A DNA stretch of 26,988 bases from a virus. Lineage: Duplodnaviria > Caudoviricetes. Below, in pieces: positions 1,094 to 23,854 of the stretch (the first letter of the stretch is position 1; every line of letters starts with the position of its first letter). The stretch spans positions 1 through 26,988 of the IMG/VR virus record IMGVR_UViG_3300047545_001071; one strand, written 5' to 3'. The translations under genes were made by a program, and so were the position numbers. Under the pieces are notes generated by a model. That model had not been told where the DNA came from. It saw only the letters and a program-made list of their open reading frames with translations, and ran no database searches.

Positions 1094-1990
1094 TTAAAAT
1101 GCTGATGAAATAGCTACTCTACGCCACGCACTTGTAGTAGTGTCATATACATAGAAATGAGTACTGTTTACAGCCCAATACCCTGCTGCTCCTGCAGAAG
1201 CAGATGTGGCTGGAACGGATACTAAAAATGTATTAGTTTGTGAACCGTTTAGTATACCACGCATATTAAGCACAACCCCAGTGGTTGTGCTTGTTGCAAC
1301 TAATACCGGCTTATATACTGAACCGAGCGTGGTAGGTTCAGTAATAGTAGCTGAACCTGCAACAGTATTAGACAAGAAATAAACTTCTCCATCTACTAAA
1401 CCGCTTAAACCAGTAATTGCTCCAACGTAAACAACGGTAAACTCGGAACCAGTAGCAGATTGTACTATTCCAATCACTTCTGCATTAGCTACTGTATCTG
1501 CTTGAGCTAATGCGTAACCTCCTGAGGTTTTTTTAATAACATTACCTGGTGAAAAAGAATTCGAATAGGTAATAGTTTGTGCACCGGCTATACCAGATGC
1601 GCCTGAATAACCGCTTATACCCGAATAACCAGAGATACCTGAGTATCCTGAAATACCTGAATACCCAGAGAAACCAGAGTAACCTGAAGTACCAGAGTAA
1701 CCTGAATAACCAGAAAAGCCGGAAGTACTAGCGCCTGAATAACCAGAAAAGCCGGATGTGCTATCGCCACTATATCCGCTATATCCGGATGTACCTATTC
1801 CAGAGTATCCCGATTCGCCTGAATAACCAGAAAAGCCGGAAGCAGCTGCAGCACCAGCACCAGAGTAACCTGAATACCCTGAAAAACCAGATGTACTATC
1901 GCCTGAATAGCCTGAGTAACCTGAAGTGCTGTTACCTGAATAGCCTGAGTAACCAGAGGCTGCATTAGGATTTGTTCCGAGATATGGCAT
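1094..1990 (-). CDS. Virion/fibre-associated protein: MPYLG N-terminus, SGX repeats, C-terminal beta-rich domain
   Basis: 298 aa ORF; about 130 aa of SG(Y/F/I/T) repeats, then ALAQAD...EVIGIV...GLVDGEVYFLS...G motif seen in phage structural proteins. Confidence 0.75.
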   Translation of the reverse strand: MPYLGTNPNAASGYSGYSGNSTSGYSGYSGDSTSGFSGYSGYSGAGAAAASGFSGYSGESGYSGIGTSGYSGYSGDSTSGFSGYSGASTSGFSGYSGYSGTSGYSGFSGYSGISGYSGISGYSGISGYSGASGIAGAQTITYSNSFSPGNVIKKTSGGYALAQADTVANAEVIGIVQSATGSEFTVVYVGAITGLSGLVDGEVYFLSNTVAGSATITEPTTLGSVYKPVLVATSTTTGVVLNMRGILNGSQTNTFLVSVPATSASAGAAGYWAVNSTHFYVYDTTTSAWRRVAISSAF

Positions 1991-2400: not shown

Positions 2401-5400
2401 TTATCCAAGAGCAACGGCATACGCTATAGCAAGTTGGGAATCTCCGCTATATCCTGAAATGCCTGAGTTACCGCTATAACCGCTTATACCCGAATAACCG
2501 GATGTACTATCCCCACTATATCCGCTTATACCAGAATAACCGCTATCACCGCTATAACCGCTTATGCCTGAATAACCTGAGTATCCACTGTAGCCGGATG
2601 TACCGCTGTAACCGCTTATACCAGAGTATCCTGATTGAGCTGGAGCAGTTGCAGATACCCATTGAGCAGAATCTCCATCATTATAATAAACGTTAAGTTG
2701 ACCATCATCACTATCCCACCATAAAGCACCTTGTGTTGGATTGTCCGGAGGGGATGCAGAAATGGTAGCGCCACTTGTAAACGGTTGCCCATTCACTCTA
2801 TAGTTGCCGGTGATATCAACATCACCAGAAACAAAAATAGCTGAAGTAGCTGAAACAGTTGCAAATGTTACATTACTATAGGTATTTAATTCTTGGTTTG
2901 CACCAGGGCCGCTATAACCGCTTATACCGGAATACCCGCTATCTCCAGAGTATCCACTATAACCAGACTCGCCACTATAACCAGAGTACCCGCTATAGCC
3001 TGACTCTCCATAACCGCTATAACCGCTTATACCAGAATAGCCTGAGTAGCCGCTAAAGCCAGATATACCGGAGTACCCAGACCAGCCTGATATACCAGAA
3101 TAGCCAGAGTACCCTGATATACCACTAAAGCCGCTAATACCACTAAAGCCAGATTGACCGCTATAGCCAGACTCTCCAGACCAGCCTGAATAACCGGACT
3201 CGCCACTAAAGCCAGAATAACCAGAAGCAGCAGCGGCGCCAGATATACCACTATAACCAGAGATACCACTATAGCCGGAAATGCCTGAATAACCTGATAT
3301 ACCACTAAAACCAGAGTAACCTGAAATACCACTAAAGCCGCTTATGCCTGAATAACCAGATTCCCCGCTATAGCCGGAGAAGCCAGAAGCAGCAGCTGCC
3401 CCAGAAATACCACTATAACCAGAAATACCGCTATAGCCAGAATAACCAGACTCGCCACTAAAGCCACTCAAGCCTGAATAACCACTTATACCAGAATAAC
3501 CAGAGTAACCTGAAATACCACTAAAGCCGCTTATACCAGAATAACCTGAGTAGCCGCTGTAACCAGATTCGCCACTGTAACCTGAAGTACCGCTATAGCC
3601 AGACTCTCCGCTAAAACCGCTTATACCACTATAGCCGGAAATACCTGAAAAACCAGACCAGCCAGATATACCGCTAAAGCCAGAAATACCGGAATAGCCA
3701 CTGTAACCGCTAATACCAGAGTCTCCTGAATAACCTGATATACCACTATAACCGCTTATACCTGAGTAGCCAGAGTAACCAGATTCCCCAGACCAGCCTG
3801 ATGTGCCGCTAAAACCACTTATACCGGAATAACCTGAATAACCAGATTCACCACTAAAGCCAGATTCTCCGCTAAAGCCGCTAATACCTGAGTAACCGCT
3901 TATACCGGAATAACCTGATATACCGCTAAAGCCAGATATACCACTGTAACCGCTTATACCAGAATAGCCGGACCACCCTGAGGTGCCACTAAAGCCAGAA
4001 ATACCTGAGTAACCAGACTCACCTATAGCACCAGAATAACCGCTTATACCTGAGTAGCCAGAGTAGCCTGAAATACCAGAGTAACCTGAAATGCCGGAAT
4101 AGCCACTAATACCACTATAACCACTATAGCCTGACTCTCCTGAGTAGCCACTGAACCCAGATTCTCCACTGTAGCCAGACCAACCTGAAATACCTGAATA
4201 ACCAGATATACCGCTAAAGCCACTTATACCGGAATAACCAGAGTACCCAGATATACCACTAAAGCCAGATTGTCCTGAAAAACCAGATTCTCCAGAGTAA
4301 CCACTGTAACCAGATTCTCCTGACCAGCCTGATATACCACTAAAGCCGGACTGACCGGAATAACCGCTAAAGCCGGACCAACCAGAGATGCCTGAATCAC
4401 CGCTAAAGCCGGACTGACCGGAATAACCGCTGTAACCTGACCATCCTGAAATACCCGAATAACCACTGTACCCGGACCAACCAGAGATGCCGGAATCTCC
4501 GCTAAAGCCGCTTACCCCAGAGTAACCTGAGGTACCACTAAACCCAGACTCACCGCTATAGCCAGATTCCCCGGACCAACCTGAAACACCAGAATAACCT
4601 GAATAGCCAGAATAACCAGAATAGCCAGACCAACCGGAAATGCCGGAATAGCCTGAATAACCAGACCAACCGGAAACACCACTGTAGCCAGAATAGCCAC
4701 TATAGCCAGAATAGCCACTATAGCCAGATTCACCGCTGAAGCCAGATTCTCCAGACCAACCGCTAAAGCCAGATTGACCGGAATAACCACTGTAACCAGA
4801 CCAACCAGATATACCAGAGTCTCCTGAATAACCGGAGTAGCCAGATTCACCGCTGTACCCGGACCAGCCAGAGATACCTGAATAACCAGATTCCCCGCTG
4901 AAGCCGCTTATACCAGATTCTCCAGACCAACCTGAAATACCACTAAAGCCGGATTGACCAGAATAGCCACTAAAGCCAGACCAACCAGAGATACCAGAAC
5001 CAGAGTAGCCAGATTCGCCACTATAACCAGAGAAACCAGAGGTACTTGCACCACTATAACCTGATGTACCGCTGAAGCCAGAATAACCAGAAGTACCTAC
5101 TGCACCTCTATATAAGCCAGTTTCAATAAAACTATACGTATTGTCCCCGATGTAGTAGTTAATAACTACGTTGTTACGATTAGTTGCATCAGTAGCTGCT
5201 CTTGCTTGTACTATGAGTCGATCTGTAACACTAAGACTAATTGGGGTGGTGATATTGTAATCAGTTTCTAGATATGCCGGAGGACCACCCACAGGAACAT
5301 TATCCGTAATAAATTGAGAATAAGCTGTAAAGAGAGGGGTAGTTGTTGACCCGTTGTATTTTTCAACAACGTAAGCGAGTCTTACGTATGAACCATTACC

Positions 5401-7989
5401 AGTATTAACAGTGTAGTATTGACCAATAACCCATGTACCTTGCGGTATAACCGTTATTCCCGGCTCCCCAATTGGAGTCATGGAATTACCAAAATTTACA
5501 TAACCATCTGTATCTCTAAAACCAGTTAAGCCTAGATATGTACTAGTTGGAAGTGTTGGTATAGTATCAAATAAAAAATAACCTGAAAGATCAGAAGCAC
5601 TAGTAGTTGGATAATAAGTTACACCAACTGCTGGAGCGCCAGACCAACCTGAGAAACCGGAAACACCGGAACCACTATAACCGGAATAACCACTATAACC
5701 TGATTCCCCGGACCAACCAGAGATACCAGAATAGCCACTTATACCGCTATAACCAGATATACCGCTATAGCCAGATTCTCCAGAAAAACCGCTTATGCCT
5801 GAAAACCCAGACCAACCAGATATACCGCTAAAGCCGGACTGACCAGAATAGCCACTATACCCTGAAAAACCTGATTCCCCACTAAAGCCTGAATAACCAG
5901 ACCAACCAGATATACCGCTAAAGCCAGATTCCCCGGAATAACCAGAGAAGCCACTTTCTCCGCTAAAGCCGCTTATGCCTGAATAGCCGGACCAGCCTGA
6001 TATACCGCTAAAGCCTGATTGACCACTGAAACCAGAATAACCACTTTCACCGCTAAAGCCTGACTCTCCGCTAAAGCCTGATTCGCCTGAATAGCCTGAT
6101 TCACCAGAGTAACCAGAAAAACCAGAAGATGCTGATTGTCCACCTGCACCACTGTAGCCGGAATAACCTGAATGACCAGAAATACCACTAAAGCCAGATT
6201 GTCCGCTATAGCCGGAGTAGCCACTAATACCGGACCAGCCTGATATACCCGAGTAGCCACTATATCCAGATTCTCCGGAATAACCCGATTCCCCAGAATA
6301 ACCTGACCATCCAGAAGTACCGCTAAAGCCAGACTGACCAGAAAAGCCTGAATAACCAGAGTAACCTGACCAACCGCTTACACCGCTAAAGCCGGATTGA
6401 CCGCTAAAGCCAGATTCCCCAGAATAGCCAGAAATGCCTGATGCGCCACTGAAACCGCTATAGCCACTAATACCACTGTAGCCAGATTCTCCAGAGTAAC
6501 CTGATTGTCCACTAAAGCCTGATTGTCCAGAGTAGCCACTAAAACCAGAATAACCAGAAACACCGGATCCGGAGTAACCAGAAATACCGCTAAAACCAGA
6601 AAGACCGCTGTGACCGCTATAGCCGCTTTCTCCACTATAGCCTGACTCTCCGGAGTAGCCACTATAGCCTGACCAGCCGCTTGTACCGCTAAAACCAGAC
6701 TGACCAGAAAAGCCGCTAAGCCCTGTACCACTAAAGCCAGATTGACCGCTATAGCCTGAGTAACCAGAAACAGTTTCACCGCTATAACCAGAAAAACCGG
6801 AAGTACCTACTTCACCAGAATAGCCTGATGTACCTATGCCACTAAAGCCAGATTGCCCTGAGTAACCACTTTGACCAGAGTAACCAGACCAACCGGATGT
6901 ACCGCTAAAGCCTGATTGACCAGAAAAACCAGAGTAACCTGAATAACCACTATAGCCTGACTCTCCACTGAAACCTGATTGACCTATTTCTCCGGAATAA
7001 CCTGACCAGCCGGAAATACCACTACTACCGCTAAAGCCTGATTGTCCGGATTGACCAGACCAACCGGATGTACCGCTAAAGCCTGATTGACCAGAAAAAC
7101 CTGAAGTGCTTGTGCCGCTATAACCAGAAAAACCGGAAGTACCTACTTCACCAGAATAGCCTGATGTTCCTATACCGCTAAAGCCGGATTGACCTGAATA
7201 ACCACTAAAGCCTGAATCTCCAGAATAACCTGACAAGCCGCTAAAGCCGGATTGACCGCTGTAGCCGCTAAAACCTGAGAAACCTGATGCAGCGACTGCA
7301 GCATTACCACTATAACCTGAAAAGCCAGAAGTACCGGAGTAACCTGAAGTGCCGGAACCACTAAACCCAGATTGGCCAGAATAACCACTATAACCAGATA
7401 CACCAGAGTAGCCGCTAATACCGGAAAAACCGGAAGCTGCAGCCGAGCCTGAAAGACCGGAATAACCTGAAAAACCTGAATCACCGGTTAAACCTACCTG
7501 GCCAGAAAAACCTGAAGTGCCGGACCAGCCTGAATAGCCTGATATACCGCTAAATCCAGATATACCTGAAGTACCAGACCAACCAGATATACCACTAAAG
7601 CCAGAAATACCTGAGTACCCTGAATTACCAGAAAAGCCTGAAGTACCAGAAAACCCTGAAGTACTTGCTCCACTAAAACCTGAAAAACCAGAAATACCTA
7701 CTTCACCAGAATAACCTGAGGTACCGAATCCACTATAACCTGAATAACCGCTTGTTCCTGAATAACCAGAAAAGCCTGAAGCAGTAGAACTACCAGCTGC
7801 ACCACTATAACCACTTGTACCAGAATAACCGGAATAACCAGACGCAGAGGCCGAAAATGCTGATACTGCGGTAGAGTAAGAAGTATAAGTTCCGTCCCCG
7901 TTATTGTGCTCAACGAAAATTAAGTCGTTAGCACTTAATGTGGTTATACGAGGTAACTCGTGTGGGAATATAAGAGTAGGATCGGCCAT
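2401..7989 (-). CDS. Giant Ser-Gly-X repeat fibre-like protein (1862 aa)
   Basis: Two long (SGX)n tracts around a globular insert (about aa 785-960), then PPDNPTQGALWWDSDDGQLNVYYNDGDSAQWV and a C-terminal LAIAYAVALG; TAAGTA at 8002-8007. Confidence 0.85.
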   Translation of the reverse strand: MADPTLIFPHELPRITTLSANDLIFVEHNNGDGTYTSYSTAVSAFSASASGYSGYSGTSGYSGAAGSSTASGFSGYSGTSGYSGYSGFGTSGYSGEVGISGFSGFSGASTSGFSGTSGFSGNSGYSGISGFSGISGWSGTSGISGFSGISGYSGWSGTSGFSGQVGLTGDSGFSGYSGLSGSAAASGFSGISGYSGVSGYSGYSGQSGFSGSGTSGYSGTSGFSGYSGNAAVAASGFSGFSGYSGQSGFSGLSGYSGDSGFSGYSGQSGFSGIGTSGYSGEVGTSGFSGYSGTSTSGFSGQSGFSGTSGWSGQSGQSGFSGSSGISGWSGYSGEIGQSGFSGESGYSGYSGYSGFSGQSGFSGTSGWSGYSGQSGYSGQSGFSGIGTSGYSGEVGTSGFSGYSGETVSGYSGYSGQSGFSGTGLSGFSGQSGFSGTSGWSGYSGYSGESGYSGESGYSGHSGLSGFSGISGYSGSGVSGYSGFSGYSGQSGFSGQSGYSGESGYSGISGYSGFSGASGISGYSGESGFSGQSGFSGVSGWSGYSGYSGFSGQSGFSGTSGWSGYSGESGYSGESGYSGYSGISGWSGISGYSGYSGQSGFSGISGHSGYSGYSGAGGQSASSGFSGYSGESGYSGESGFSGESGFSGESGYSGFSGQSGFSGISGWSGYSGISGFSGESGFSGYSGESGFSGISGWSGYSGFSGESGFSGYSGYSGQSGFSGISGWSGFSGISGFSGESGYSGISGYSGISGYSGISGWSGESGYSGYSGYSGSGVSGFSGWSGAPAVGVTYYPTTSASDLSGYFLFDTIPTLPTSTYLGLTGFRDTDGYVNFGNSMTPIGEPGITVIPQGTWVIGQYYTVNTGNGSYVRLAYVVEKYNGSTTTPLFTAYSQFITDNVPVGGPPAYLETDYNITTPISLSVTDRLIVQARAATDATNRNNVVINYYIGDNTYSFIETGLYRGAVGTSGYSGFSGTSGYSGASTSGFSGYSGESGYSGSGISGWSGFSGYSGQSGFSGISGWSGESGISGFSGESGYSGISGWSGYSGESGYSGYSGDSGISGWSGYSGYSGQSGFSGWSGESGFSGESGYSGYSGYSGYSGYSGVSGWSGYSGYSGISGWSGYSGYSGYSGYSGVSGWSGESGYSGESGFSGTSGYSGVSGFSGDSGISGWSGYSGYSGISGWSGYSGYSGQSGFSGDSGISGWSGFSGYSGQSGFSGISGWSGESGYSGYSGESGFSGQSGFSGISGYSGYSGISGFSGISGYSGISGWSGYSGESGFSGYSGESGYSGYSGISGYSGISGYSGISGYSGYSGISGYSGAIGESGYSGISGFSGTSGWSGYSGISGYSGISGFSGISGYSGISGYSGISGFSGESGFSGESGYSGYSGISGFSGTSGWSGESGYSGYSGISGYSGISGYSGDSGISGYSGYSGISGFSGISGWSGFSGISGYSGISGFSGESGYSGTSGYSGESGYSGYSGYSGISGFSGISGYSGYSGISGYSGLSGFSGESGYSGYSGISGYSGISGAAAASGFSGYSGESGYSGISGFSGISGYSGFSGISGYSGISGYSGISGYSGISGAAAASGYSGFSGESGYSGWSGESGYSGQSGFSGISGFSGISGYSGYSGISGWSGYSGISGFSGYSGYSGISGYSGYGESGYSGYSGYSGESGYSGYSGDSGYSGISGYSGPGANQELNTYSNVTFATVSATSAIFVSGDVDITGNYRVNGQPFTSGATISASPPDNPTQGALWWDSDDGQLNVYYNDGDSAQWVSATAPAQSGYSGISGYSGTSGYSGYSGYSGISGYSGDSGYSGISGYSGDSTSGYSGISGYSGNSGISGYSGDSQLAIAYAVALG

Positions 7990-13450: not shown

Positions 13451-13588
13451 ATGGCTACAAACAAACACGGGGTTATTATTCCCATTGGTAAGATCACGCG
13501 CGAGAGTGCAGCAGCTATTCGCGCTCGAGGTGGAGTAGCACGTACCATTCGCGCTACCCGATCAGATAAAGGAAAGAAGAGGAAGTAA
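13451..13588 (+). CDS. Small basic protein (45 aa) ending RSDKGKKRK
   Basis: Manual translation MATNKHGVIIPIGKITRESAAAIRARGGVARTIRATRSDKGKKRK; packed 3 nt after the previous stop. Confidence 0.75.
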   Translation: MATNKHGVIIPIGKITRESAAAIRARGGVARTIRATRSDKGKKRK

Positions 13589-13589
13589 T

Positions 13590-13721
13590 ATGGCTAAGAA
13601 CAGAGTTATAAAGAACAGACCAAGCTATGCTGAAAGTGCTGGCGATAAGGCCGCGTACCTTAGACGTCTAGGGTATAGTGCTCGTAAGCAGCGCTCAGAC
13701 GCAGGTAAGAAGAGAAAGTAA
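13590..13721 (+). CDS. Small basic protein (43 aa) ending RSDAGKKRK
   Basis: Manual translation MAKNRVIKNRPSYAESAGDKAAYLRRLGYSARKQRSDAGKKRK; begins 1 nt after the previous stop. Confidence 0.75.
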   Translation: MAKNRVIKNRPSYAESAGDKAAYLRRLGYSARKQRSDAGKKRK

Positions 13722-14468: not shown

Positions 14469-14702
14469 TTACTTGTCTCCGTCGTTACCAATAGCATTTA
14501 CTGGACAAACAGTTATGGCTTCTTCAGCACGTTCAATTTCTTTTTCCGTAACCGGTTGTACGGCTACGTAACTAAATCCCTCATCATCGTTACGTTTAAA
14601 GCTCTCAGACGTCTGCCTACATGCATCACAATCAATACAGGTATCATCGACGTAGTATTTGCCAGGAGTATTAAAAGAGAGTCTAAAGTTTTTATCAGCC
14701 AT
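14469..14702 (-). CDS. Single-cluster [4Fe-4S] ferredoxin
   Basis: CIDCDAC (CxxCxxC) plus a distal CPVNAI; 77 aa; TAAATA at 14708-14713. Confidence 0.9.
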   Translation of the reverse strand: MADKNFRLSFNTPGKYYVDDTCIDCDACRQTSESFKRNDDEGFSYVAVQPVTEKEIERAEEAITVCPVNAIGNDGDK

Positions 14703-16064: not shown

Positions 16065-16093
16065 ATTATGTGAACAATAAGGACAAATGGCAA
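16065..16093 (-). promoter_or_regulatory. Early sigma70-type promoter
   Basis: gagcTTGCCA-N17-CATAAT. Confidence 0.75.
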
Positions 16094-16282
16094 GCTCTTT
16101 CTTGAATGTTCTTCTACGTAGCTCATTCACTGACGTTCATCAGCTGCTCTTCAGACAAAAATACTCCTGCAGGCGTCAGTTGTAACATTTGCGACAATGA
16201 ACAATTTACTGAACATTTCTTGCAACAAAGTTGAACAGAGTGCACAGGAATTGACCTACAGGAGCATAAGTATTTATGCGAC

Positions 16283-16894
16283 ATGAACAACAGAATCAAC
16301 TACTTGATTCCTGATGATGCTTCATCAGGCATTTACAAGATAACTACGTCCGATGGGCATTACTACATCGGATCGACTAACAGCTTCAAAGATCGATTCA
16401 AAGAGCACGAATGTACTCTTCGATTGAGGACGCACAGCAATCCGCACATGACGAACCGGTACCATGCTTCTGCTGACGTATGGGTGTACGAAAGAGTTGA
16501 AGAGGTGCCTGTCGATCGTCTGCTGATCGTTGAACAGATGTACCTTGACAAGCATTGTGGCAATCCTCTATGCATGAACATCAACCGCAGTGCAATCAAG
16601 CCGCCGAGTCGTAAGGGAGTAAAACTAACAGACGAGCAGCGGTGTCAGCTGAAGAAGAGAGTGATAAGAGATCGAGCGGCTTGGATTGAGAAGCTAAGAA
16701 AAGCTAATACCGGAAGAGTGCATTCCTCTGAAGCCAAAGCTAAGATGCGTGCTGCTCGTTTAGGAAAGAAAGGTAAGGCTACTCCAACAACCTTTCAGAA
16801 AGGCCGTGTGCCTTGGAATAAGGGTAAGAGTACTGCTGTACAGTATGTTAGAGGCTGTTACGAAAGGCAACTAGTTTGTCAACCATCTCGTTGA
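16283..16894 (+). CDS. Free-standing GIY-YIG homing endonuclease with NUMOD3-like C-terminal motifs
   Basis: SGIYKIT...YYIGST...RFKEH...HSNPHM...E..YL; HSSEAKAKMR repeat-type motif; TAAGTA at 16267-16272. Confidence 0.9.
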   Translation: MNNRINYLIPDDASSGIYKITTSDGHYYIGSTNSFKDRFKEHECTLRLRTHSNPHMTNRYHASADVWVYERVEEVPVDRLLIVEQMYLDKHCGNPLCMNINRSAIKPPSRKGVKLTDEQRCQLKKRVIRDRAAWIEKLRKANTGRVHSSEAKAKMRAARLGKKGKATPTTFQKGRVPWNKGKSTAVQYVRGCYERQLVCQPSR

Positions 16895-17048
16895 ATTGTT
16901 CTTTAGTCCAAACTTGTTGGTACGTCTGCATACCACCATTAGTGGAGTAGCTAGTAATGATCTTACCTTCATCCGTCGACCAGTCCTTATCGGCGTCGTA
17001 GCTACGAACTTCGTAGATGAACTTCGTGTAATCGTTAATGTTCTTCAT
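16848..17048 (-). CDS. Hypothetical early protein (66 aa)
   Basis: Start re-called to ATG 17048 (MKNIND...), 9 nt after the -10 box of the repeated promoter. Confidence 0.75.
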   Translation of the reverse strand: MKNINDYTKFIYEVRSYDADKDWSTDEGKIITSYSTNGGMQTYQQVWTKEQFNEMVDKLVAFRNSL

Positions 17049-17086
17049 TGTCCGTACAGTATGGTGACCCTTATCGGATATGTCAA
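17044..17086 (-). repeat. Promoter/start cassette repeat, copy 1
   Basis: TTGACA-N17-CATACT-gtacggaca-ATG; 22-nt core ttcattgtccgtacagtatggt (+ strand 17044-17065) is identical in 4 copies. Confidence 0.9.
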
Positions 17087-17088
17087 GC

Positions 17089-17367
17089 TCAATCGCCAAC
17101 GATGATGTAATCGAATTCAGCGTCGTGGATGAGGTACTTGCGAAGGGCTTCGAACTCCTCCTTAACCTTATCGTCGAGGGTGATGTAATCCTCGATGTGC
17201 TCTTCGAGGAAGTAAAGCCAATCTTGCGTCTTCCATACCGGCCAGCTGGGGTCGAGCAACTCGTTAAAGTCCTGGATGATAAGCACTTGTAACGGCTTCG
17301 ATAGGTGCTTGACTAGCTGGTGATCAAAAACGAACTTCTCGGGCTCAAGCTTAATGATGTCCTTCAT
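17089..17367 (-). CDS. Acidic hypothetical early protein (92 aa), tandem paralog of 17410..17736
   Basis: Shared FVFDHxLxKHLSKPL...KTxDW...LEExIE...EFxALRKYLxHxAEFDYI. Confidence 0.85.
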   Translation of the reverse strand: MKDIIKLEPEKFVFDHQLVKHLSKPLQVLIIQDFNELLDPSWPVWKTQDWLYFLEEHIEDYITLDDKVKEEFEALRKYLIHDAEFDYIIVGD

Positions 17368-17405
17368 TGTCCGTACAGTATGGTAACAGTTATGGGATAT
17401 GGCAA
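17363..17405 (-). repeat. Promoter/start cassette repeat, copy 2
   Basis: TTGCCA-N17-CATACT-gtacggaca-ATG; core at 17363-17384. Confidence 0.9.
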
Positions 17406-17409
17406 GCTT

Positions 17410-17736
17410 TTAATCGTTAATGCTGATGAAGATGTAATCAAATTCAGCTTCGTGAGTGAGGTACTTCCGAAGGGCTTTGAACTCATTCGTAACCTGCACT
17501 TTGTACTCCTTCGTAACATTATCGTCAAGAACGACGCACTCTTCGATGTACTCTTCGAGGTAGCGAGACCAATCTGCGGTCTTTACCAATGCGTCAAAAG
17601 GATATGCCGTCTTGTCGCTGTACCAGTAGTCTTCGTTGTGGCCTTTGATGATATCTCGCAACGGCTTCGATAGGTGCTTGGCTAGCTCATGATCGAAGAC
17701 AAACGTCTTGGGCTTAAGCTTATTGATATTCTTCAT
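17410..17736 (-). CDS. Hypothetical early protein (108 aa), paralog of 17089..17367
   Basis: Same shared motifs as the paralog; has its own promoter cassette. Confidence 0.85.
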   Translation of the reverse strand: MKNINKLKPKTFVFDHELAKHLSKPLRDIIKGHNEDYWYSDKTAYPFDALVKTADWSRYLEEYIEECVVLDDNVTKEYKVQVTNEFKALRKYLTHEAEFDYIFISIND

Positions 17737-17774
17737 TGTCCGTACAGTATGGTGACGATTGTTGGATAGGTCAA
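17732..17774 (-). repeat. Promoter/start cassette repeat, copy 3
   Basis: TTGACC-N17-CATACT-gtacggaca-ATG; core at 17732-17753. Confidence 0.9.
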
Positions 17775-17775
17775 G

Positions 17776-18015
17776 CTAGAAATTGCTCTCGAGAAGACTC
17801 TTCAGATCCTTGTAATAATCAAACACTTCCTCATACTCCTGCATATCATCATCCCAGCGCCAGTGACAAAGAGCATACTCCTTAAACCCTTTATCGAAAA
17901 AGATACGATACGTACCTTCGTACTCGTCACTGAACCACTCACAGTCTTTCTCGTTCCAATGAAAGCCGAGCTCGTGGAGTTTGTTCTGTTGTTCCGGTGT
18001 AGCGTCGTTATTCAT
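17776..18015 (-). CDS. Acidic, aromatic-rich hypothetical early protein (79 aa)
   Basis: Start re-called to ATG 18015 (MNNDATPEQ...) within the cassette repeat. Confidence 0.8.
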   Translation of the reverse strand: MNNDATPEQQNKLHELGFHWNEKDCEWFSDEYEGTYRIFFDKGFKEYALCHWRWDDDMQEYEEVFDYYKDLKSLLESNF

Positions 18016-18053
18016 TGTCCGTACAGTATGGTGACAGTTACGGGATAAGTCAA
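18011..18053 (-). repeat. Promoter/start cassette repeat, copy 4
   Basis: TTGACT-N17-CATACT-gtacggaca-ATG; core at 18011-18032. Confidence 0.9.
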
Positions 18054-18056
18054 GCC

Positions 18057-18251
18057 TTATTTCCAACCAATTGCCATTGAGGCAGCTACACCTCCATCAT
18101 TTTCCTGACTACGCTTAGCAGCCATTACCTTGGCGTAGTACTCCCCAGTATCTCCGATGAAGTACGAATCACCAGCAGGAGCGAATCGCCACTTCCTCAA
18201 GAGGTCCATGTAGCTTGCTTGATCAATCCAATTTTTTTGTTCGGGTGTCAT
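18057..18251 (-). CDS. Conserved phage hypothetical protein (64 aa)
   Basis: KNWIDQASYxDLLRKWRFAPAG...F.GDTGEY...SxxIGW; tightly packed between its neighbours. Confidence 0.8.
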   Translation of the reverse strand: MTPEQKNWIDQASYMDLLRKWRFAPAGDSYFIGDTGEYYAKVMAAKRSQENDGGVAASMAIGWK

Positions 18252-19246: not shown

Positions 19247-19272
19247 AAAAAAAGGCCCTTAACGGGCCTTTT
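19247..19272. terminator. Rho-independent terminator abutting a -35 box
   Basis: AAAAAAAGGCCC-TTAAC-GGGCCTTTT. Confidence 0.85.
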
Positions 19273-19295
19273 AAATTTATTAAGCAAGTTAAAAC

Positions 19296-19595
19296 TTACC
19301 AATTACTCTTACACAATTCTTCCCACTTCTTATTCATCTCTTCATCCCAATTCTCCCAATTCTTCACCCAATAAAACCATTCACTCTTCTCGCTAAAAAC
19401 AAACTTTAAACTCTCCTCATCAATCCCAATACTTCCTACCCCACTCTCTTCATCAATCTTAACAATACTATCCTCATCACCTTCATCAAAGCTATACACA
19501 ACACTACTCAAATCATTACCCTCAACATCCTTAAACTTACCTAGCACATCACACTCTCCATAGCCCATGTAAACGTCAATGGTTCTGAATTTCAT
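19296..19595 (-). CDS. Highly acidic protein (99 aa) on a cytosine-depleted mRNA
   Basis: 25 D/E; no Ala, Pro, Gln or His; promoter TTGCCA-N16-CATTAT-N7-ATG (19603-19630). Confidence 0.8.
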   Translation of the reverse strand: MKFRTIDVYMGYGECDVLGKFKDVEGNDLSSVVYSFDEGDEDSIVKIDEESGVGSIGIDEESLKFVFSEKSEWFYWVKNWENWDEEMNKKWEELCKSNW

Positions 19596-19643
19596 AATGT
19601 TAATAATGTTAGCTTTTTATAAAATGGCAATAAAAAAAATAAC

Positions 19644-19715
19644 TCACTCCTTCACTTCAACAATCTCACCCAAATACTTCTCACCACAAACCAAAACATC
19701 ATTCTTAATTTTCAT
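19644..19715 (-). CDS. Microprotein (23 aa) MKIKNDVLVCGEKYLGEIVEVKE
   Basis: TTGCAA-N17-CATAAT-N6-ATG (19722-19750), leaderless geometry; the coding strand has no C. Confidence 0.65.
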   Translation of the reverse strand: MKIKNDVLVCGEKYLGEIVEVKE

Positions 19716-19751
19716 ACCATTATTATGTGAACGTTTTTGCAATATTGCAAT

Positions 19752-19782
19752 AAAAAAAAGCTCACCCAGATCTGGGTGAGCT
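19752..19782 (-). terminator. Rho-independent terminator abutting a -35 box
   Basis: Perfect 24-bp palindrome AGCTCACCCAGATCTGGGTGAGCT (19759-19782) followed by a T run on the minus strand. Confidence 0.85.
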
Positions 19783-19812: not shown

Positions 19813-20073
19813 TTAGGCCTTCTTCTCAGCCTGAAGGCGCTTCCCCTCGCGGGAGAGGTACGTGGTCTGGAGCTTTTCCAGAGAGCCGTACTTTTGAATC
19901 ACCTTATCGATGTAAGTCGGTGAGGTGAGCTTGATGGTCTTACCCGTCACAACGCACTGCAGGCAGAGCGGTAGAGCATAACCACGTTCGGCAATCCGCT
20001 TAGCGCGGTTAGAAGCAACGGTAGCGGCACGCTTTGCAGCGGTAGTATTAGCAGTAGCAGTATTCTCAGTCAT
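19813..20073 (-). CDS. Basic hypothetical protein (86 aa), paralog of 15630..16040
   Basis: LQCVVTGKTIKLT...IDK...YGSLE; promoter TTGACT-N16-TAGAAT at 20124-20151; AAGGA upstream of the start. Confidence 0.8.
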   Translation of the reverse strand: MTENTATANTTAAKRAATVASNRAKRIAERGYALPLCLQCVVTGKTIKLTSPTYIDKVIQKYGSLEKLQTTYLSREGKRLQAEKKA

Positions 20074-20606: not shown

Positions 20607-20788
20607 ACAAGTATTATGGTAACGTTTGCTTAAAATGGCAAGCTAATTGTGCGTTGGAAGTATGCGCACCCCACTCTGGGAGCTTCTGCTCCTCCACCAT
20701 TAAAACTCTCAGGCTCACAAGAGCTGCTATGCAGCTTATTTTGTTTTGCTTATGAACGAGAATAAGAGCCTGAGAGTCGTAAGTATTT

Positions 20789-21481
20789 ATGCTTATGAAA
20801 GAGAATACAACGGTTCCATCTAAACCTAACTTTAAAGGGCTGAAAGAAGGTACAAAAGAGTTCAAAGCACGTTCGAGAGAAATCCGTAATTGGCGGCTTT
20901 TGTATGAACCTGGCTACAAAGAACGTGTCCGTAATTATACTAAAACTTACAGTACCAATAATGCAGCTCGCATAAAAGAAATCAATAACAAACTTGAAAA
21001 TCGAGTGAGACGTAACATGCTTCAAACTCAACGACGTCTAAAAAACTATGAAAAGCATCGAGCATACCATAAAGCTTACTTTGACAAAAACTATCAAACT
21101 AGTCCTTACTTCAGACTTAACCACATTCTTAGAGTCGGTTTGAGGGACAGTCTCCGGGATGGATATGACAAATGCGACTGCTTCGGTTGTAGTATCGTGG
21201 ATCTAAAAGCACATCTTGAGCAACAATTTATGGATGGAATGAACTGGACCAATCACGGTAAAGCCTGGCACATAGATCATATCATCTCTTTATCACAGGG
21301 GATTAAACTAGGGCTATCCAGTGATAGCGTGTGGAACTACGTTAATTTGCAGCCGTTACCAATACATGTGAATCTTTCGAAGAAAGATCACTTACAGAAA
21401 CAATACATGAACAAAATACTAGCTCACCCAGATGCACCAGATGAGCTAGTGGATATTGCGCTGGCGTTGCTTAGCTATTAA
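20789..21481 (+). CDS. Free-standing HNH endonuclease
   Basis: GCS..DLKAHLEQQF..GMNW.NHG..WHIDHI...NY.NLQPL...NLSK; TAAGTA at 20780-20785 (the start may be ATG 20795). Confidence 0.88.
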   Translation: MLMKENTTVPSKPNFKGLKEGTKEFKARSREIRNWRLLYEPGYKERVRNYTKTYSTNNAARIKEINNKLENRVRRNMLQTQRRLKNYEKHRAYHKAYFDKNYQTSPYFRLNHILRVGLRDSLRDGYDKCDCFGCSIVDLKAHLEQQFMDGMNWTNHGKAWHIDHIISLSQGIKLGLSSDSVWNYVNLQPLPIHVNLSKKDHLQKQYMNKILAHPDAPDELVDIALALLSY

Positions 21482-23164: not shown

Positions 23165-23212
23165 GTCTTAATTGTACGATGATTATGGTACCATTTTGGG
23201 CAAACGGCAAGG

Positions 23213-23272
23213 TTAATCTGACTTCTTTACGGATTTGATTCGCTTACTGTCTGGCTGTTGGGTGTGCTTCAT
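23213..23272 (-). CDS. Possible micropeptide (19 aa) MKHTQQPDSKRIKSVKKSD
   Basis: TTGCTA-N17-TACATT-N9-ATG (23282-23310) with the ggacaATG junction of the cassette repeats; the stop lies 2 nt before the next -35. Confidence 0.45.
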   Translation of the reverse strand: MKHTQQPDSKRIKSVKKSD

Positions 23273-23419
23273 TGTCCCATTAATGTAGCGGATATATCCC
23301 ATTCTAGCAAGCTAAAAAGGCAGAACAATGTAATCATTAAGCTTGCAGGTCCCCTTAAGAGTACTACAATTACAATAACAAATCGGGAATTCAGTGCATT
23401 CCCGCCTAAGTATGGCTAT

Positions 23420-23854
23420 ATGACTAAAGAACAGCATAAAGCGTACTATCAATATCGCCTAGGTAAAAACCCGAGCTACAAAGCAGCTGCAATTACAGAA
23501 AAAGAAGTCGAAGAATATCAGAGACGTTACCACCTTAACGCAGTTCGCTCAAGAGCACGACGCGGCGGTTTGCCGTTTAACTTAACAATTGAAGATATTG
23601 TTATTCCCACGGTATGTCCTGTCCTCGGGATAACTCTTTCCCGAGGTAGCGGTTACCGATCAGGCTGCTCGCCTTCGATTGATCGCATTAACCCGAGCCT
23701 CGGTTACGTTAAAGGTAACATTATTGTAGTTTCCATGCGCGCTAATGAAATAAAAAGGGATAGCACCTGGCCGGAAATAATGAAAGTTGCAGAGTTTTAC
23801 CGTAACTTAGAGCTTGCCAAGAACCATAACAGTGCCGATAATGTAGCACAATAA
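23420..23854 (+). CDS. Free-standing His-Me finger (HNH-like) endonuclease (144 aa)
   Basis: RARR.GLPFNLT.EDI.IP..CPVLG...SPSIDRI...GYVKGNI.VVS..AN..K; start re-called to ATG 23420, 7 nt after TAAGTA (23407-23412). Confidence 0.82.
   Translation: MTKEQHKAYYQYRLGKNPSYKAAAITEKEVEEYQRRYHLNAVRSRARRGGLPFNLTIEDIVIPTVCPVLGITLSRGSGYRSGCSPSIDRINPSLGYVKGNIIVVSMRANEIKRDSTWPEIMKVAEFYRNLELAKNHNSADNVAQ
23814..23842 (+). promoter_or_regulatory. Early-type promoter pointing rightwards into non-coding DNA
   Basis: gagcTTGCCA-N17-GATAAT, the same consensus as the minus-strand promoters. Confidence 0.6.

Follow-up and report, generated by a model that had tools for sequence, protein, structure and literature searches.

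Genes from which one base or motif was removed to escape a block are known as engineered constructs, the G-less cassettes and ACA-less genes. Host-takeover or pre-early modules are reportedly carried by SPO1, K-like phages and T5. These modules consist of small genes in arrays, with a host-type promoter for every gene, and are said to be shuffled via promoter repeats; to our knowledge, no base is excluded from any of them. Phages with DpdA3 replace all guanine after replication, and the available text of PMC10516641 gives fdPreQ1 for immuto_2-6A, dADG for CP220 and dDG for phiST. According to the same text, no dG was detected in immuto_2-6A and its DNA resists G-site enzymes. The subject of that paper is restriction protection, and its main text contains neither ‘transcription’ nor ‘RNA polymerase’. 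In the sequence-specific dPreQ0 phage iggy of Pseudomonas, the DpdA target is GA (PMC10484667, available text). The gene islands described here resemble the modules of SPO1, K-like phages and T5 in being small-gene arrays with own promoters and shuffled content. They differ from the engineered cassettes in being natural, protein-coding and kept through divergence.

A viral DNA stretch of 26,988 nt (the window) was analyzed. Its genes for terminase, head closure and collagen-like fibres identify it as part of the genome of a large T4-like phage. The first-pass annotation had singled out a two-gene unit with mRNAs almost free of cytosine, and all of its C counts and its protein composition were exact on recount. 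The coding strand of a 99-aa gene (19296..19595, minus strand) contains 9 C in 300 nt at gene positions 9, 14, 15, 21, 27, 33, 52, 105 and 204, leaving 3 in the last 265 nt, and a 23-aa ORF (19644..19715, minus strand) contains 0 C in 72 nt. The 99-aa product has no Ala, Pro, Gln or His, one Thr, and 25 D/E versus 11 K/R. A per-gene check bore out that the bias is unlike the neighbouring genes: the coding C fraction of the 99-aa gene is 0.030, the next lowest among the 43 window ORFs 0.101 and the median 0.185, which makes this gene the sole C outlier. The probability of at most 9 C in 300 nt is 3e-6 even with 10% C assumed. Seven of the nine C in the window copy lie within the first 52 nt (p = 1.2e-4). 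The unit lies directly downstream of a conserved 86-aa gene with normal C content (19813..20073, minus strand), which was used as a marker.

Some other features of the window were recorded. Positions 1-1000 have a GC content of 0.57-0.64 versus about 0.42 elsewhere and are possibly foreign or mis-joined DNA. Two collagen-like Gly-Tyr-Ser repeat proteins of 1,862 aa and 298 aa (2401-7989 and 1094-1990, minus strand) are tail-fibre-like. A phage-borne 4Fe-4S ferredoxin is encoded at 14469-14702 (minus strand), with a similar ORF at 3760-3993 of the relative G001. Three endonuclease genes (16283-16894, 20789-21481 and 23258-23854, plus strand) are inserted opposite to the early-region strand. Two tiny basic paralogues (13451-13588 and 13590-13721, plus strand) share a C-terminal RSD-x-GKKRK and are followed by a two-way terminator.

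A metagenome scan gave two loci. L001 has the window's arrangement, including that of the 23-aa ORF. In L002, a homologue of the 99-aa gene (85%) lies inside a run of 2,726 nt without C (882 G), which is preceded by 111 further C-free bases. This run comprises about ten genes of 47-99 aa, each with its own C-free promoter, and its palindromes consist of A/T only. The first C's reappear in the 3’ arm of the terminator, and the four genes after the island have 5-14% C. The 23-aa ORF of the window is the 47-aa last gene of this island minus 24 internal residues and, thus, a deletion remnant. Since the L002 island was found in 16 DNA runs with 14 study codes (some codes may be one campaign) and a contig of 1,029 nt spans the junction from the island into C-containing DNA, a sequencing artefact is unlikely. 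Across four runs, 11 of the 213 differences listed for the whole L002 locus create a C and T>C was found 10 times versus 40 for A>G, the sites being shared between runs and not independent. Contigs from RNA runs (X17) cover most of the island and are silent on transcription or its level. At the DNA level, neither cultured phages nor five related contigs matched the L002 island, and scanning viral contigs with the 99-aa protein, with one gene of L002 or with the marker gene by itself gave no match.

The window unit reads as a reduced island copy, partly relaxed, with some C regained. Alleles of the window gene with fewer C were found, and a gene of the related phage G002, compared to its C-free twin in G009, has a C pattern like the 5’ clustering in the window gene. 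A mosaic origin of the window allele, with its 5’ part diverged and its 3’ part derived from an island, was considered as an alternative and is unproven (non-C differences 9/80 versus 12/220, p = 0.12). Of the terminator-insulated unit originally proposed, it holds that the bias follows the transcription unit; the unit itself is a piece of a larger island.

Two 140-kb relatives were identified by their terminase (G001, 74%; G002, 80%); the close family is represented by contigs, none of them a complete genome. Near the marker homologue, G001 has a C-free coding run of 745 nt with one C, which runs off the contig, and G002 one of 466 nt; neither has DNA likeness to L002. A marker scan yielded 11 loci, with islands within about 2.3 kb of the homologue in four (G001, G002, L132 with 1,487 nt and L136 with 255 nt) and none in seven. 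As in the window, the islands of G001 and L132 lie directly downstream of the marker gene. A C-free run of 776 nt is found in G009, which also encodes DpdA3. Island size ranges from one to about ten genes between promoter and terminator, and arrays of small genes with own host-type promoters are present in L002, L132, G001 and G009. Islands near the same marker have mostly different genes, and joints located at promoter repeats demonstrate a shuffling of gene content. No island was found in the family fragments G003-G007 and G019 (0/6), or in G021:C44 and G020:C17, all of them fragments in which absence is not demonstrable. The 466-nt island of G002 has a direct repeat of roughly 100 nt, a C-containing promoter-leader, on both sides (L038, 17630-18370), which suggests movement by recombination. 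Island-gene homologues with C (L134, 1867-2022, 9 C in 156 nt; protein P0069, six A/P/Q/H/T residues) are natural relaxed controls.

The bias is kept by homologues, a point that the first-pass annotation had named as a check. A profile search gave 70 proteins of the 99-aa family. Ala, Pro, Gln, His and Thr are all absent from 57 of them, and 67 contain at most two such residues; a biased query may favour biased matches, although most E-values are < 1e-15. Motifs are conserved in the family, the products of these C-free genes remain conserved to about 25-35% identity, and L132 encodes a homologue with 38%. From an alignment of 57 rows, a confident model was obtained (pLDDT 92; an earlier one from seven sequences was unusable at pLDDT 38), predicting a compact alpha/beta fold, rich in beta structure, to which no named fold corresponds. 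Due to the conserved motifs and sequences and the confident fold, the 99-aa gene looks like a working, conserved gene. Foldseek found no PDB match at E ≤ 0.001, and the one structural match is an uncharacterized phage protein (A0A6J5M8E1, E 6e-4, TM 0.64). The 99-aa protein has no match in Pfam, PHROG or a language-model atlas and no PDB sequence match under E 0.25; 23 island proteins have no PHROG match at E < 0.001. DNA-mimic anti-restriction proteins of the Ocr, ArdA and Arn type share its acidity and have no sequence or fold match to it in Pfam, PHROG, PDB and Foldseek PDB; the acidity is in part forced by the C-free code, and the DNA-mimic role offered in the first-pass annotation may apply.

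Promoters and terminators delimit the stretch that is free of C. The σ70-like promoter of the 23-aa ORF (19722..19750, minus strand) keeps C, with 6 C in the 45 nt upstream of the ATG, and that of the 99-aa gene (19603..19630, minus strand), a 70% copy of the former, has 5 C in 45 nt. Hairpin prediction gave terminator-like structures closing the upstream marker gene (19759..19782, minus strand) and the unit (19250..19272, scored on both strands). The ATG of both genes lies 6-7 nt past the -10 box, and both starts are, thus, probably leaderless. Promoters and hairpins are present as first annotated, but promoters with a T-tract and leaderless starts do not set the C-poor unit apart, because normal-C neighbours have the same (window 19245-19217, and the four genes that follow the island of L002). 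In the 45 nt before the start, L136 has 3 C, immuto 2, G026 11 and G002 6. For single or first island genes, C is often retained upstream of the start, spacers inside island arrays are C-free, and C-freedom extends from about the inferred start site to the 3’ arm of the terminator. Accordingly, the constraint acts on the transcribed stretch, in which an mRNA without C equals a template without G. A set of 24 island genes, selected as C-poor, uses 641 NNT versus 3 NNC codons in the six boxes read by one tRNA. The first island promoters of G001 and G009 lie in A/T-only runs of 88 and 83 nt, the longest such runs of each contig; the next-longest in G001 outside the island-promoter region is 26 nt. 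About 150-200 nt before the first gene of these islands are almost purely A/T (G001, 657-806; G009, 75562-75759). A promoter-leader repeat of the window (17040-18067, 20615-20644, 23184-23213 and 16067-16096; four copies of 61 nt and seven of 30 nt) heads small genes including the tandem paralogues 17089-17367 and 17410-17736.

The relative G002 encodes FolE2, QueD, QueF, a formyltransferase and DpdA3 (FolE2 and QueD from 30 ORFs scanned) and has these pathway genes and its 466-nt C-free run on one contig. Its genes dpdA3, a small gene, dpdN, a kinase gene and queF follow each other as in immuto_2-6A, at identities of 51% for DpdA3, 43% for DpdN and 41% for QueF. DpdA3 was found at 53 viral loci with 83-100% identity to that of G002, with QueF in 38 and DpdN in 42 of the 53 within 4-kb flanks. 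Among the 37 ORFs scanned in the window's 27-kb contig there is no dpd gene; from its kin, the window's own phage probably modifies G. The complete 221-kb phage G023 (147477-149665) has DpdA3, QueF and QueC and no formyltransferase and is a candidate phage for another kind of complete G replacement.

Islands had been predicted beforehand for phages with full G replacement, and gene 128 of immuto_2-6A contains 5 C in 357 nt (median C fraction 0.146). Its product is not homologous to the 99-aa protein. The immuto terminase is 29% identical to that of the window's family, and immuto has the polymerase PolA and one near-C-free gene, whereas the window's family has PolB and islands of up to about ten genes. 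There were 15 large DpdN contigs, all with DpdA3, of which nine were examined (all but G031, G033 and G036-G039). Five of the nine are at least 90% complete: in G026, one gene contains 2 C in 321 nt and the genes on either side or nearby, two in number, are partly depleted, and G025, G027, G028 and G029 have no near-C-free gene. Hence, four of the six genomes at least 90% complete with DpdA3, QueF and DpdN are without a C-free gene, among them two phages related to immuto (terminase 89% and 95%). DpdN-bearing fragments gave 0/4 at the strict cut (G032, 14 C in 291 nt). Such genes were found in 0/7 complete genomes for which the search gave no DpdN (CP220, phiST, BSP7 with 12 C in 180 nt, MA9V-3, pf16, KVP40 and G023), and the background rate rests on these seven controls. 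With 2/6 versus 0/7 (Fisher's exact test, p = 0.19), the census is no more than suggestive of a link to the fdPreQ1 pathway. C-free genes as a required unlock step for the modified genome were rejected, given the four of six pathway genomes without them; the genes are clearly accessory.

The best explanation, which we hold with reserve and rate somewhat below an even chance, is that a G-free template, as follows from a C-free mRNA, lets the host RNA polymerase read incoming DNA fully modified with fdPreQ1. Every G of the incoming DNA is predicted to be replaced, in the window's phage by analogy to its kin, and fdPreQ1 in the template would slow or stall the host polymerase. Cytosine alone can be dispensed with entirely in an mRNA, because AUG needs A, U and G. 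Small, likely early genes would lose coding-strand C under selection and be the first expressed, and their acidic products may act on the host. The wider reading is slightly more tentative still: a three-letter mRNA code (A, G, U) for first genes in at least two unrelated phage lineages, with stable folds from 15 amino acids and a modification that doubles as a transcription timer. In favour of the G-free template, G002 and G009 combine DpdA3 with C-free runs. In phage iggy, stretches depleted of the modifiable site occur, too: GA/TC alone of six dinucleotide pairs has gaps ≥ 150 nt (four seen, 0.0014 expected; L363/L364, MN029011, at 27694, 39300, 42700 and 60074, lengths 152-171 nt). Against this parallel, the iggy gaps concern both strands and not whole genes, whereas islands are whole genes depleted on one strand. 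The words ‘promoter’, ‘transcription’ and ‘depleted’ have 0 occurrences in the available text of PMC10484667. Also in favour, bulky 7-substituted deazaG blocked both bacterial polymerases tested and unsubstituted deazaG was tolerated (PMC4838386, available text, in which fdPreQ1 is not among the modifications covered), and phiST with its dDG lacks an island. Against it, the block in PMC4838386 was mainly at initiation without elongation pausing, and E. coli polymerase passes 5-carboxylcytosine without pausing (PMC8989532, likewise without fdPreQ1 among the modifications covered in the available text). A pure initiation model as a general rule was rejected, since 2-11 C per 45 nt are left in the promoters of five units (window, L136, G002, G026 and immuto). 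Further points against the favoured explanation are the four pathway genomes without such a gene, the absence of a dpd gene among the ORFs scanned on the window's contig, CP220, which has 100% dADG and no near-C-free gene, and the normal C content of adjacent small genes whose promoters are similar.

An escape at the RNA level, by which C-free messages survive a CTP drain, ddhCTP, or RNA cutting or modification at C, imposed by host defence or phage, is the nearest competitor and in our judgement unlikely. The extent of the C-free stretch from about the inferred start site to the terminator 3’ arm and the C retained in promoters of single-gene units fit it, and a patchy presence would be expected of a defence carried by some hosts only. 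It predicts neither the A/T-only first promoters, which a G-free template would accommodate, nor such genes in two fdPreQ1-pathway genomes, and no such defence was identified in this analysis. Viperin products reportedly act on phage rather than host polymerase. We think it rather improbable that a cytosine deaminase acts on the single-stranded non-template strand during heavy transcription, with C lost by mutation, by selection for immunity, or by both. Allele differences at C are mostly C/T (8/9 for window versus L002, 3/3 for G002 versus G009), which is the usual synonymous change anyway, and the crowding of C at the 5’ end of the window gene resembles a process starting downstream of the promoter. 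However, genes just beyond the terminator keep their 5-14% C with similar promoters, and no deaminase is among the ORFs scanned.

The first-pass annotation had also offered explanations at the level of DNA sites, tRNA and mRNases. An evasion at the duplex level, either by having no G/C palindromes or by modified G in one strand defeating nucleases that need both, agrees with the A/T-only palindromes of L002 and is very improbable. The rule tracks single mid-genome transcription units (L136, immuto, G026) and stops at promoter and terminator, 250 protected nt cannot save a genome, and G-replaced DNA such as that of immuto already resists G-site enzymes (PMC10516641, available text); restriction-site avoidance was therefore dropped. 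The near absence of five amino acids and of all C-containing codons is what would be left if the genes evaded either the loss of certain tRNAs or a single mRNase with sequence specificity, e.g. MazF. This is hardly credible and largely refuted by the synonymous and intergenic pattern: NNC codons are avoided where one tRNA reads both, which speaks against tRNA loss together with the C-free spacers, and every C is gone rather than one triplet such as ACA, so that MazF alone does not suffice.

In the literature searched, which covers few subscription journals, no description of C-free phage genes was found. Such genes raise the question how host RNA polymerase transcribes a phage genome with all G modified, transcription not being mentioned in the available text of the fdPreQ1 paper (PMC10516641). 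Gene 128 of the cultured phage immuto_2-6A makes this question accessible to a direct test, since a single gene has to be recoded. Irrespective of the cause, the genes are natural and written in a code of three bases, 24 codons and 15 amino acids, and the absence of C would be a simple means to flag, from sequence, candidates for first-expressed genes of host takeover or counter-defence.
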